From: Galbibacter orientalis DSM 19592
Lineage (GTDB): Bacteria; Bacteroidota; Bacteroidia; Flavobacteriales; Flavobacteriaceae
Assembly: GCF_000260115.1 (NCBI RefSeq)
Contig: NZ_JH651379.1
Coordinates: 3,032,240 to 3,064,239, forward strand
Direction of reading: 5' to 3'
Length of the DNA stretch: 32,000 nt
In this document: positions 8,074-21,364 of the stretch, piece by piece
Layout: each line of letters begins with the position of its first letter
How positions within the stretch are numbered: the stretch's first letter is position 1
Notes under the pieces: model-generated
Databases searched by the model: none
The model's input: only the letters and a program-made list of their open reading frames with translations
What the model was told of the DNA's origin: nothing
Translations under genes and position numbers: made by a program

Positions 8074-9753
8074 TTAGTTAATATGAGTGCTATCTATTTT
8101 AATTTCATAGTTAAGAGTATCTATTTCTTCTGAAGGAATACTATCTTCAATTACATCATCATTAGCATCTTCTAAATTTTCTTCAACAGGACAGTCCATA
8201 CAATTTAAAACTCCATGATTATCCATTTTCCAAGTATGATTTGCTAAATCATTGCTATAGTAGTTTAGATTGTTTTTAATATTTCCTTCCATATGATAAC
8301 GAGTAGAATTATGAAGCTTTACAAATGTATTTTCAGGAACATAAATAATAATTTCAATTTCTTGATCTCTAAATTTATTGTCGTAATCTGTTGTTAAATA
8401 ATTATTTAAATATACAATATTGTTTTCTACACTAAACTCATAATCTACATTTTCAGCTCTTTTGAAAGCATCTTTATAGTTACTTCCTTGCGATTTCTTT
8501 TCAATTTCAATACGAGCTTCGTTATTAGGAGATTGTTTTATAAAAAACTCCATGTCTTCTCGGTAGATCATTTTTTCATCACCATCTACTACAATATCAA
8601 AATCAGAATCGTGATAATATCTATTTTTTAGATTTTGAGCTTCCATAACTCTAATCTCTAAAGTATCTTTTTGAACTATATTTAATACTTCTGTTTCTGT
8701 TGCCATTGCATCAAAAGAGTAATCTGTAGCAGTTCTGATTCCTAAAATTGTAAGTCCTATTACAGAAAGTAACCATATTCCTAGTAAAGAAAATTTCGCA
8801 AAGTTTCCAATAGATTTTAAATTGTTTACCAATATTTTTAGTCCTAAATAGAACAAGAAAAAGAATGGTATTCCAACAGCAAAAAATGAAAGGAGAGAAA
8901 TAAGCCACACTGGAGCATCTACGGTAATGTCTACAAATTCTCTCCATGGTTGCGCTCCCCATAAATCAATCGTTCCTGCTGTAAAGAGACCTATTAATAA
9001 ACTTATTAAAACAGTTGCTGCAAAAATTAAAACTATAATTCCAATAAGCTTTGCTACTACTTTAAAAAGGAATAGAATAACTGCTAGGATCGAATCAAAA
9101 AAATTTTTGGAATTTTTTTTTACCGATTGTCCCATTTTATCGTAATCTACACTTTTCACTTTTTCAGTAACTTCATCGAAACCCTCTTTAATTTTTTTTT
9201 CGATGTTACTAATATTAACAGGCTCTCCCGTCATGGCTATTTTTTGAGCTGTGGTAGCTGCTTCTGGAACCAAAATCCAAAATAAAATGTATACTAAAAT
9301 TCCGAAACCAGATAATAGTGTTGTTAAAATAAATAACAATCGTACCCAAAGCGCATCAATTCCTAAATAATAACTCAATCCAGCACATACACCACCAATA
9401 TATTTATGGTCGGTATCTCTAAATAATTGCTTGTGAGGTTTTCTGGTATTCGATTTACTAGACTTAGGTTCGTCTTCAAAAATTTCTTCATCTACCAAAT
9501 AGTCTTCTGGTTGTCCCATAATTGTAATAACCTCGTCTACTTCTTTAGTAGTAATAACTTGTCTTTCGTGCAGTAATCTTTCAGTAAAAAGCTCTGCAAT
9601 TCGCGCTTCGATATCGGCAATAATTTCAGATTTCCCTTGAGAATCTGTAAAGGAGCGTTTAATAGCGTCCAAATAGCGCTGTAATTTTATATAGGCGTCT
9701 TCATCTATGTGGAAGAAGGTATTTGCCAAATTTATGTTGATAGTCTTATTCAT
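8074..9753 (-). CDS. PspC domain-containing membrane protein with a DUF1700-like N-terminal helical region
   Basis: 559-aa ORF with the PspC domain signature YIGGVCAGLSYYLGIDALWVRLLFIL, several transmembrane helices and a C-terminal extracytoplasmic domain. It starts 11 nt after the padR stop. Confidence 0.85.
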   Translation of the reverse strand: MNKTININLANTFFHIDEDAYIKLQRYLDAIKRSFTDSQGKSEIIADIEARIAELFTERLLHERQVITTKEVDEVITIMGQPEDYLVDEEIFEDEPKSSKSNTRKPHKQLFRDTDHKYIGGVCAGLSYYLGIDALWVRLLFILTTLLSGFGILVYILFWILVPEAATTAQKIAMTGEPVNISNIEKKIKEGFDEVTEKVKSVDYDKMGQSVKKNSKNFFDSILAVILFLFKVVAKLIGIIVLIFAATVLISLLIGLFTAGTIDLWGAQPWREFVDITVDAPVWLISLLSFFAVGIPFFFLFYLGLKILVNNLKSIGNFAKFSLLGIWLLSVIGLTILGIRTATDYSFDAMATETEVLNIVQKDTLEIRVMEAQNLKNRYYHDSDFDIVVDGDEKMIYREDMEFFIKQSPNNEARIEIEKKSQGSNYKDAFKRAENVDYEFSVENNIVYLNNYLTTDYDNKFRDQEIEIIIYVPENTFVKLHNSTRYHMEGNIKNNLNYYSNDLANHTWKMDNHGVLNCMDCPVEENLEDANDDVIEDSIPSEEIDTLNYEIKIDSTHIN

Positions 9754-9764
9754 AGTTAGTGTTT

Positions 9765-10088
9765 TTATTTTGTTACCAGGTTAACTGCGTTTCTTAGTTC
9801 GTCCCAAGTGGTGTTGAGTTCTTTTAAAAATAGTTTGCCATTCTCGGTTAGGGTGTAATACTTACGTGGAGGTCCGGATGTGGACTCCTCCCAACGGTAA
9901 CTTAATAACCCTGCGTTTTTCAGTCTTGTTAATAGCGGATAAATAGTTCCTTCTACTACAAGCATTTTTGCGTCTTTTAAGGTCTCAAGAATTTCTGAAG
10001 CATATTTATCCTCATTTTCTATGATGGATAAAATACAGTATTCCAAAACCCCTTTTCGCATTTGTGCTTTTGTGTTCTCTATATTCAT
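9765..10088 (-). CDS. PadR-family winged-helix transcriptional regulator
   Basis: 107-aa ORF with the PadR hallmark segments GVLEYCIL ... GTIYPLLTRLKNAGLL ... RKYYTLTENG. Confidence 0.9.
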   Translation of the reverse strand: MNIENTKAQMRKGVLEYCILSIIENEDKYASEILETLKDAKMLVVEGTIYPLLTRLKNAGLLSYRWEESTSGPPRKYYTLTENGKLFLKELNTTWDELRNAVNLVTK

Positions 10089-10115
10089 GGTTTCATGATA
10101 CTTTTTGTTAAACTG

Positions 10116-10190
10116 TTCGTTTTTTGATTGCCCACAAAGTGGGGTTTGATTGATTTGATTGATGACTCACAATGTGAGGTTTTTTTTTTT
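10116..10190 (-). promoter_or_regulatory. padR upstream region: CAATCAA-A5-CGAA leader, two CAC-N3-GTG palindromes and an A10 tract
   Basis: Palindromes CCCAC-AAA-GTGGG (10131-10143) and CTCAC-AAT-GTGAG (10166-10178) are interleaved with GATTGA words. A T10 run lies on the plus strand at 10180-10190. Confidence 0.3.
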
Positions 10191-10207
10191 AGGTTCAAAG
10201 GGGCAAA

Positions 10208-10267
10208 GATTAAATGATTGAAAGATTGAAAGATTGAATGATTGAATGATTGAAAGATTGAAAGATT
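10208..10267. repeat. Tandem 8-mer array GATTGAAW, 7 units
   Basis: The units are gattaaat, gattgaaa x2, gattgaat x2, gattgaaa x2, then a partial gatt. All are in register. Confidence 0.9.
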
Positions 10268-10275
10268 TTGTCATG

Positions 10276-10569
10276 TCTCCTGTCTCTTATCTCCTGTTTC
10301 TTGTTTCTTGTCTCTTATCTCTTATCTCTTGTCTATTGTCTATTGTCTCCTGTCTTCTGTCTTCTGTCTCCTGTCTTCTGTCTCCTGTCTTCTGTCTTCT
10401 GTCTCTTGTCTCTTGTTTCTTGTTTCTTGTCTCTTGTTTCTTGTCTCTTGTCTCTTATCTCCTGTCTCTTGTCTCTTATCTCTTATCTCTTGTTTCTTGT
10501 TTCTTGTCTCCTGTCTCTTGTCTCTTGTCTCTTGTCTCTTGTCTCTTGTCTCCTGTCTCTTATCTCTTG
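10276..10569. repeat. Tandem 7-mer array, consensus TCTCTTG, 42 units in perfect register (294 bp)
   Basis: Counted unit by unit: tctcttg x13, tctcctg x8, tctctta x7, tttcttg x7, tcttctg x5, tctattg x2. There are no indels. 250 of 294 plus-strand bases are pyrimidines. Confidence 0.95.
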
Positions 10570-10582
10570 TCTACAAAAAAAC

Positions 10583-11053
10583 TTACTTTATAAATTTTAT
10601 AGTTAATGGGTAATTATATACTAAGCCGTCATTAGCTCTTATGGTTGCAATAATTGTACAAAACACATCCATAAGTAAGAGTCCTATTCCAAGCATTGCA
10701 ATAATACTTATGAGCCCAGCGTTCCATCCGAAACTAGAAATATGATCAAAATTAAAATCTACATTATGACTATTGTGCTCTAAAATATTTGTAAAGCCAA
10801 TAAACTCCCATGCAGTAAATAATGCAATCGGGATCATTACTATTCCTAATATAATACTGTAAAGCAAAATACTTATTTGAAAGTTTATAGCTTCTTTTCC
10901 ATTCTCATCTATAAACTCCCATTTGTCTTTATTAGAAGTCCAAATAAGTAGGGGAATAATAAAATTTCCAAAAGGAATAAAATACTTTGAGAAGGTAGAC
11001 AGATGAATAACTGCCGATACGTTCTTTTGATGTTTGCTTATGGATGTATCCAT
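10583..11053 (-). CDS. DUF4870-like small integral membrane protein
   Basis: 156-aa ORF with about 4 transmembrane helices. The segment LIWTSNKDKWEFIDENGKEAINFQISILLY resembles the DUF4870 core. Confidence 0.6.
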   Translation of the reverse strand: MDTSISKHQKNVSAVIHLSTFSKYFIPFGNFIIPLLIWTSNKDKWEFIDENGKEAINFQISILLYSIILGIVMIPIALFTAWEFIGFTNILEHNSHNVDFNFDHISSFGWNAGLISIIAMLGIGLLLMDVFCTIIATIRANDGLVYNYPLTIKFIK

Positions 11054-11129
11054 GTTCGTTTTTTTTTGATTGATTGATGATGAATTTTAGTAAGAAATAT
11101 ATAACCTACTAATTTCTATTACAAATATA
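11054..11129 (-). promoter_or_regulatory. Candidate -7 box (tatatttg, 11122-11129) and leader motif CATCAATCAATC-A9-CGAAC directly before the ATG
   Basis: The minus strand has TAtaTTTG 68 nt upstream of the start codon. The leader motif occupies 11054-11079. Confidence 0.35.
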
Positions 11130-21116: not shown

Positions 21117-21280
21117 AAGGTTTAAAGGTTTAAAGGTTCAAAGGTTCAGAGGTTCAAAGGTTCAAAGGTTCAAAGGTTCAAAGGTTCAAAGGTTCAAAGG
21201 TTTCAAAAGATTCAAAGGTTCAAAGGTTTCAAAAGATTCAGAGGTTCAGAGACTCAAAAGATTAAAAATATTCAAAGGTT
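21117..21280. repeat. Tandem array of about 19 units of AAGGTTCA (8-10 nt variants)
   Basis: Parsed unit by unit: aaggttta x2, aaggttca x2, gaggttca, aaggttca x5, then 9-nt variants aaggtttca / aaagattca, then decaying units. It starts 5 nt from the ctaA GTG. Confidence 0.9.
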
Positions 21281-21316
21281 TTTTGTTTTTATTTCTACAC
21301 AAACTAAATACATTTA

Positions 21317-21364
21317 CTTTGCCACTTTGCCACTTTGCCACTTTGCCACTTTGCCACTTTGCTA
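21317..21364. repeat. Tandem 8-mer array CTTTGCCA, 6 units
   Basis: Five perfect ctttgcca units plus a final ctttgcta. The cta of the final unit is the TAG stop (minus strand) of the CCA-adding enzyme gene. Confidence 0.9.

Follow-up and report, generated by a model that had tools for sequence, protein, structure and literature searches.

Background

Long simple-sequence repeats (LSSRs) of prokaryotes have 5-11-nt units; heptamers dominate among them, and polymerase slippage is their proposed cause (Mrazek, Guo and Shah 2007, as summarized in PMC4679880 and PMC4692102). Long intergenic heptamer arrays with up to 43 copies were found in Gramella forsetii KT0803 and Aequorivita sublithincola DSM 14238 (MacGregor 2015, PMC4679880). 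The GGGAATC heptamers of Xanthomonas and the GGGGA(C/T)T heptamers of Nostoc are 89-93% intergenic, and the same study cites the STRR heptamers of Calothrix PCC 7601 (Rehm et al. 2015, PMC4692102). In H. influenzae, the (ATCTTTC)n repeat in the 5'-UTR of hmw1A/2A is transcribed and pairs with a G-rich arm to give a long hairpin that is cut by RNase III, and expression drops as the copy number increases (PMC12721329).

Galbibacter orientalis DSM 19592 (= Joostella marina En5T) has a genome of 4,508,243 bp with a second scaffold of 558,212 bp and a G+C content of 33.6%. The En5T draft was completed by means of PCR together with 454 and Illumina sequencing, and 7/8-nt repeats go unmentioned in the genome paper (PMC3739173). 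The first scaffold is printed there as 3,959,031 bp, while 3,950,031 bp fits the stated total. Here we describe a composite tandem array between a DUF4870 gene and a padR gene of this strain. The window referred to below is the whole stretch of 32,000 nucleotides analysed (contig NZ_JH651379.1, positions 3,032,240 to 3,064,239). We consider it probable that the tract is a hypervariable heptanucleotide-plus-octanucleotide VNTR of the LSSR class (5-11-nt units), generated by slippage and most likely without a sequence-specific function at this site.

Organization of the array

TRF detected a period-7 array at 10274-10572 of the window (42.7 copies, 87% matches, 0% indels) and a period-8 array at 10205-10267 (7.9 copies, 90% matches). 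The features of the locus, in window coordinates, are:

8074-9753, minus strand: PspC-domain / LiaI-LiaF-TM / Toast-rack protein gene, directly after padR (Pfam)
9765-10088, minus strand: padR-family regulator gene, downstream of the array (Pfam)
10089-10191, minus strand: padR-adjacent block, conserved in congeners, with palindromes at 10131-10143 and 10166-10178, TCATCAATCAA repeats and CAATCAAAAAACGAAC...ATG
10192-10267, unstranded: 8-nt phased tract with GATTGAAW x 7.9 at 10205-10267 (TRF, parsing)
10268-10275, unstranded: short non-repeat junction of the heptamer and octamer arrays, sense ...acatgacaaa..., constant in all alleles
10276-10569, unstranded: array of 42 x 7 nt, plus strand TCTCTTG, gene-sense minus strand CAAGAGA (TRF, register parsing)
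10570-10582, unstranded: 13-nt constant linker from the DUF4870 stop to the first 7-mer, sense gtttttttgtaga
10583-11053, minus strand: DUF4870 (MamF_MmsF-type) membrane protein gene, upstream of the array (Pfam)
11122-11129, minus strand: TATATTTG, a TAnnTTTG match some 70 nt ahead of the DUF4870 start codon

Parsing of positions 10276-10569 in register gave 42 units, namely TCTCTTG (13), TCTCCTG (8), TCTCTTA (7), TTTCTTG (7), TCTTCTG (5) and TCTATTG (2). All counts of the first-pass annotation were correct: it had reported 42 in-register units in six variants without indels, pyrimidine at 250 of 294 plus-strand positions, eight CAGGAGA units on the minus strand, and 13 nt between the array and the DUF4870 stop codon (10583-10585). 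The pairing of identical adjacent variants that it described was also seen, with 13 neighbouring identical heptamer units compared to 7.6 in shuffles of the unit order (p = 0.022), so this clustering is real, yet modest.

In the octamer tract, GGTTCAAAG and GGGCAAAG at 10192-10208 precede the GATTGAAW array in the same phase, and along the sense strand the octamer phase is carried on as AATCTTTG-CCCCTTTG-AACCT. The minus strand of 10192-10267 consists of CTTTC/CTTTG units and falls within the genome-wide CTTT(G/C)NNN octamer family described below. The two arrays lie 104-480 nt upstream of padR, past the conserved block. They had been thought to fill the region upstream of padR; the position upstream of the gene stood, while a conserved stretch of about 100 nt (10089-10191) separates the 8-mer tract from the padR start.

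A chance origin was excluded, as the 500-nt-block shuffled genome gave zero TRF arrays of period 7 or 8. An assembly artefact was likewise ruled out by independent public assemblies in which the identical site is occupied by the same array.

Copy number between strains

An exact-sequence look-up of the DUF4870 protein yielded independent assemblies of the same species with the same gene order, in which the heptamers were parsed in register. The numbers of heptamer units were:

42: Galbibacter orientalis DSM 19592, window
25: NCBI GCA_054051425.1 chromosome
65: ENA metagenome assembly
68: JGI metagenome 1
68: JGI metagenome 2, allele identical to that of JGI metagenome 1

At least three additional heptamer unit orders were present in incomplete contigs, and the octamer array occurred in alleles of 7.6 or 8.6 copies with differing variant order. 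The flanks of the 25-, 65- and 68-unit assemblies were 99.1-99.5% identical to those of the window, and the 13-nt linker past the stop codon, the inter-array junction and the padR-proximal block were constant across alleles. Between the 65- and 68-unit alleles, whose flanks were 100% and 99.8% identical, the sole differences were a +1-unit and a +2-unit insertion. Allele differences were whole units throughout. Short-read metagenome assemblies may collapse repeats, and allele lengths are possibly affected in part, but a gross error is unlikely since two independent samples gave an identical 68-unit allele and the units include internal variants.

The tract is a true VNTR, and a 'frozen' element is excluded by copy numbers that vary from 25 to 68 units. 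The strain comparison that the first-pass annotation had proposed thus bore out its description of the array as hypervariable, with 25, 42, 65 and 68 copies among strains with nearly identical flanks, and its reading of the paired variants as a mark of slippage, since alleles differed by whole units alone. The span of about 300 bp tolerated in nature argues against roles that require exact spacing. A switch of padR promoter geometry, suggested earlier for this spacer, is unlikely; the conserved block of about 100 nt intervenes, and alleles found in nature vary in length by some 300 bp.

The allele lengths also bear on a coding role. All three plus-strand frames of the array are open, which follows from the lack of a stop codon in any frame of TCTCTTG, and the resulting ORFs (101-115 aa, with an LLSLVSC-like heptad) could be read as a real small hydrophobic protein; gene callers annotated ORFs of 164 and 171 aa in two public assemblies. 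The in-array ORF had no Pfam match, and alleles differ in length by 119, 161 and 182 nt, none of which is divisible by 3, as holds for most differences overall. ORF length moreover tracks array length, none is called in the 25-unit allele, and the relatives lack the array. With the Pfam search null, these allele lengths and a stop-free unit, the coding reading is hardly credible and was rejected. The 164- and 171-aa 'genes' called in the public metagenome assemblies (contig positions 2948-3442 and 2948-3463) are the plus-strand reading of the heptamer array and overlap the 3' end of DUF4870.

Origin of the array

Synteny of DUF4870 and padR is conserved throughout the genus and in much of the family. 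The spacer between the two genes is 496 nt here compared to 49-139 nt in nine congeners, and the array was absent from all nine of these genomes with the same gene order. In several relatives this spacer is merely 28-50 nt, and four tandem TCTCTTG units (allowing up to 3 mismatches) were absent from 30 of 30 relatives. In the nearest species, Joostella atrarenae M1-2, the PadR protein is 100% and the DUF4870 protein 89% identical, and the spacer is 136 nt without an array. Relative to J. atrarenae, about 43 nt past the stop codon have been exchanged for an array complex of about 400 nt. The array is an acquisition of the Joostella marina / Galbibacter orientalis lineage that postdates its separation from J. 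atrarenae. Judged from its sequence, acaaggagaaaca within the replaced J. atrarenae segment could have been the seed of the array.

Insertion of a mobile element (MITE/IS) at the padR locus was rejected, because neither TIR nor TSD was found against the empty site of J. atrarenae. The outer flanks of the padR-locus array are single-copy within the genome.

Genome-wide family of 7/8-nt arrays

The first-pass annotation had also proposed a genome-wide search for further arrays. TRF analysis of the whole genome gave 114 arrays in 117 rows, 62 with period 7 and 52 with period 8, while periods 6, 9 and 10 gave 1, 2 and 1, respectively. The padR-locus array belongs to this family and, with 299 bp, is the longest period-7/8 array of the genome. 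Together the 114 arrays sum to 6,543 bp across 74 spacers. On a rough ORF map, 110 were intergenic, and the remaining four include the artefact ORF inside the padR-locus array. At least one flank was repeated in the genome for 94 of the 114. Divergent spacers were under-used, with 11 of 110 arrays against an expected fraction of 0.227 by length (p = 0.0009) or 0.148 by count (p = 0.18), and convergent spacers were slightly over-used (23/110). Among the 78 arrays in co-directional spacers, 14 started within 14 nt past the upstream stop codon.

No convincing orientation bias was found for the canonical unit, sense versus antisense to transcription (31:47), for arrays with C>G versus G>C on the sense strand (43:33), for the purine-rich strand relative to the leading strand (45:42), or for the CTTTS strand relative to the leading strand (18:20 and 15:12); the ratio of 18:11 for the CTTTS strand relative to transcription was also counted as no bias. 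With respect to replication, G/C and A/T were weakly biased (p about 0.015-0.025, uncorrected). Chi/KOPS-like and Rho-avoidance ideas were dropped, since the orientation tests gave no convincing bias. Cumulative GC skew of scaffold C1 had its minimum at about 0.88 Mb and its maximum at about 2.12 Mb, with more sign changes at about 2.8 and 3.6 Mb. These extra turning points suggest that parts of the draft scaffold are inverted or out of order.

The numbers of period-7/8 arrays per 400 kb were:

Galbibacter orientalis DSM 19592: about 10 on average (0-28 per 400-kb sample)
G. pacificus, 400-kb sample: 6
J. atrarenae, 400-kb sample: 1
Complete congener genome, 400-kb sample: 0

These counts indicate a patchy trait within the genus. 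A repair defect was rejected as the cause, as MutS1 and RecJ are intact in DSM 19592 and in all nine congeners. A link to four-helix-bundle (PF05635) genes was also rejected, since a genome with 10 such genes cannot account for 114 arrays in this way.

Outside the window, at C1:3587000-3590600, the genes of an arg-operon-like cluster are separated in every case by a spacer with an octamer array, 0-5 nt past the stop codon; an array-plus-flank unit of about 185 nt is itself duplicated there, and a PF05635 four-helix-bundle (23S rRNA IVS protein) gene lies between two arrays. A second composite array of the window, at 21117-21362, has ACTTTGCC x5.9 directly 3' of the stop of a CCA-adding enzyme gene and AAGGTTCA x16, which ends 5 nt from a ctaA-like start. 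A conserved 'aaatgtatt(a/t)a' string comes after the (GGCAAAGT)n array at 21117-21362, and the same string follows the arrays of the arg-like cluster. A look-up of the CCA-adding enzyme for the 21117-21362 array retrieved a single contig, which ends at the array.

The conserved block and possible transcription of the array

The conserved padR-side stretch of about 95 nt contains ctcac-N3-gtgag, tcatcaatcaa..., ccac-N3-gtgg and caatcaaaaaacgaac...ATG. The palindromes CCCAC-AAA-GTGGG and CTCAC-AAT-GTGAG are retained in the nearest relatives with altered loops. Directly upstream of the start codons of both padR and DUF4870 (10089-10191; 11054-11085) stands TCATCAATCAATCAAAAAA(A)CGAAC, conserved genus-wide. 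This start-proximal string and the palindromes could serve the PadR module as operator or leader. Within the genome, the 16-mer upstream of the padR and DUF4870 starts is essentially limited to the padR locus, and CAATCAAAAAACGAAC was rejected as a regulon motif because it is essentially confined to that locus.

The -7 promoter motif of Bacteroidota is TAnnTTTG. None was found on the sense strand from the DUF4870 stop to the padR start, and over the whole window the motif shows no enrichment. A sigma-70 promoter scan was disregarded, as that consensus is inapplicable to Bacteroidota. Since the spacer has no -7 motif, one lies upstream of DUF4870, and spacers in some relatives are only 28-50 nt, co-transcription of DUF4870 and padR is plausible. 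The array may be transcribed as the intercistronic spacer of such a co-transcript and would then resemble the arrays between the genes of the arg-operon-like cluster. The first-pass annotation had likewise listed a transcribed purine-rich UTR as a candidate binding platform for protein or RNA; the sense RNA of the array, as detailed below, is less structured than shuffled sequences and has no Rfam match.

A transcribed array, whether carried by a DUF4870-padR co-transcript or by an extended padR leader, might act as an expression rheostat, with copy number tuning the PadR-PspC envelope-stress module in an hmw-like manner. The range of 25-68 copies resembles the 11-63 reported for hmw (PMC12721329), the sense-strand octamer AATCTTTC includes the hmw unit, and the promoter motifs and short spacers just described are compatible with the required transcript. 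The hmw mechanism, however, requires a stable long hairpin. The sense RNA (minus strand) had an MFE of -18.8 kcal/mol compared to -27.4 kcal/mol for shuffled sequences (z = +2.27) and is thus less structured than these, and its folding gave no hmw-type regulatory hairpin with a complementary arm. Folding of the antisense RNA of the array equalled that of the shuffles, and Rfam gave no match, as the best scores, 21.1 and 13.4 bits, fell far short of the respective gathering scores (93 and 40). In addition, the 114 arrays adjoin unrelated genes without orientation bias, all nine congeners lack the array, and the host is a free-living marine bacterium in which the gene concerned encodes a regulator, not a surface antigen. 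We therefore regard a rheostat at padR as rather unlikely.

Possible non-B DNA structure

The first-pass annotation had listed a triplex-prone structure among possible roles of the tract. A polypurine/polypyrimidine tract could form an intramolecular triplex (H-DNA) and affect replication or transcription, and the array has the strand asymmetry for this (85%, 250/294 pyrimidine on the plus strand). H-DNA calls for a mirror repeat of at least about 15 bp that is homopurine/homopyrimidine without a break, whereas the longest unbroken pyrimidine run here is 6 nt, perfect mirror arms reach no more than 10 nt and the unit is not mirror-symmetric. Most other arrays of the genome also lack purine/pyrimidine asymmetry, with a mean sense-strand purine content of 0.47. 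The triplex suggestion was consequently not borne out, and H-DNA formation is very improbable.

The CTTT(G/C)NNN octamer family

A CTTT(G/C) core was present in 39 of the 52 octamer arrays against 3% expected, and in only 5 of the 62 heptamer arrays, whose units are diverse. Examples of the octamer family are CTTTCAAT x22, CTTTGAAC, CTTTGCCC/T/A, CTTTGCAT, CTTTGAGC and CTTTGACC. The pattern (CTTTSNNN)x3+CTTTS matched 66 times in DSM 19592 compared to 7 for the reversed control, and 10 times compared to 0 in G. pacificus. Many of these matches are heterogeneous tracts such as CTTTGaacCTTTGccaCTTTGcatCTTTG, in which the core is kept and the 3-nt spacer varies, and these tracts sit in a dispersed mosaic element made of degenerate 7/8-nt modules. 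Kilobase-scale non-coding stretches of the mosaic element occur at C1:627700-628800 and 1802700-1803600, with the modules CTTCTGT, CTTCCGT, GTTATCG/GTTACGA and ACTGAAC and with heterogeneous phased CTTTGNNN tracts.

Beyond the genus, 5 of 300 other Flavobacteriaceae genera had GATTGAAA arrays at the ends of genes. In one other genus of the family (contig positions 1470-1997), a trpD-like stop precedes (ATTGAAAG)x11, which directly abuts the start codon (ATG) of a four-helix-bundle protein gene; an inverted (CAATCTTT)x5.5 array comes next, so that inverted octamer arrays flank a small inserted gene.

A conserved core with variable spacers is unexplained by plain slippage, which hints at constraint or at a sequence-specific process. 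One reading of this pattern takes the arrays as a phased platform of iterated sites, with 7-8 nt per monomer, for a single-strand binder of the cold-shock-domain or S1 type or for a nucleoid-associated protein, with the recognition element being the CTTT(G/C) core or perhaps GTCTCTT. Bacillus CspB prefers GTCTTTG/T heptamers. The enrichment of the core among octamer arrays, the tracts that keep the core and not the spacer (66 vs 7, and 10 vs 0 in G. pacificus) and the GATTGAAA arrays at gene ends of five other genera speak for such sites, and binding by S1, Csp or CsrA has been proposed for TAACTGA arrays (MacGregor 2015, PMC4679880). Yet the heterogeneous tracts are non-independent copies of one dispersed mosaic element; the CTTTS strand is unbiased relative to transcription (18:11) and to replication; the heptamer units are diverse and carry the core in only 5 of 62 arrays; and the binder is putative. 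On balance a protein platform of this kind is unlikely.

In a wider form, the octamers, and possibly heptamers like GTCTCTT, would be iterated recognition sites with one CTTT(G/C) per 8 nt for a putative Flavobacteriaceae protein or an amplification process, to which we assign a small probability. If true, it would explain the shared core of about 40 arrays, the tracts with kept core and varied spacer, and the recurrence of GATTGAAA in distant genera, and the DUF4870-padR array would be an unusually expanded case of a family-wide cis element. The CTTT(G/C)NNN family is the one feature able to raise the array above a neutral satellite.

Most probable history and significance of the array

The first-pass annotation had named a neutral satellite as the last of four possible roles, among which it made no choice. 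It is the reading favoured here, as the array is absent from nine syntenic congeners, is one of 114 and shows no orientation bias. A slippage-made VNTR of the LSSR class agrees with what was found: head-to-tail units beyond chance, many mostly intergenic arrays with heptamers over-represented, and whole-unit polymorphism between strains. The array occupies the one unconstrained stretch of the DUF4870-padR spacer, bounded by the stop codon and the padR-side conserved block, and would have grown and shrunk by whole units through replication strand slippage or unequal exchange between sister copies. Its effect would be a spacer longer by about 240-540 bp, depending on the strain, which the operon appears to tolerate. 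From the whole-unit polymorphism and other features of the array we infer slippage as the mechanism, and the missing signals of structure and orientation argue for neutrality. The array is an ordinary member of a known slippage-made class of bacterial microsatellites, with no specific job evident at the padR locus.

The padR-locus array is usable as a strain marker and is also a source of spurious gene calls. It offers a natural allele series (25, 42, 65 and 68 units) upstream of the genes for a PadR-PspC envelope-stress module, the type strain can be cultivated, and array-poor sister species are at hand for comparison. The series is a practical system for asking why units are 7-8 nt long and whether LSSRs act.

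Comparison with known systems

As LSSRs are described in PMC4679880 and PMC4692102, the arrays of G. orientalis resemble them in their head-to-tail 7-8-nt units beyond chance, mostly intergenic position, large number per genome and occurrence in scattered lineages. They differ in that octamers nearly match heptamers (52 vs 62) and form one sequence family. The G. orientalis genome was not included in the survey of Mrazek et al. (2007) as it is summarized in those articles.

Like the heptamers of Xanthomonas and Nostoc, the arrays are dispersed, prefer co-directional and convergent over divergent spacers and vary in length among relatives (PMC4692102). The units of those bacteria, however, are G-rich and quadruplex-forming, with one dominant unit per genome (PMC4692102), whereas the units here are AT-rich and of about 50 kinds, none with G4 potential.

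The hmw (ATCTTTC)n rheostat is the best-understood functional analogue. Both are heptamer VNTRs upstream of a gene, with 11-63 copies there (PMC12721329) and 25-68 here, and the octamer of G. orientalis includes the string ATCTTTC. In contrast to hmw, no hairpin is predicted here, and the array is one of 114 and not gene-specific.

The closest published case is that of the Gramella and Aequorivita heptamer arrays. Those strains belong to the same family, their spacers hold other heptamer repeats too, and close syntenic relatives have short, repeat-free spacers (PMC4679880). Those arrays, built of TAACTGA instead of the CAAGAGA and AATCTTTC units of G. orientalis, were described without copy-number alleles at strain level, and horizontal spread or regulatory roles were favoured for them (PMC4679880), whereas the padR-locus array of G. 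orientalis differs between strains by whole units.
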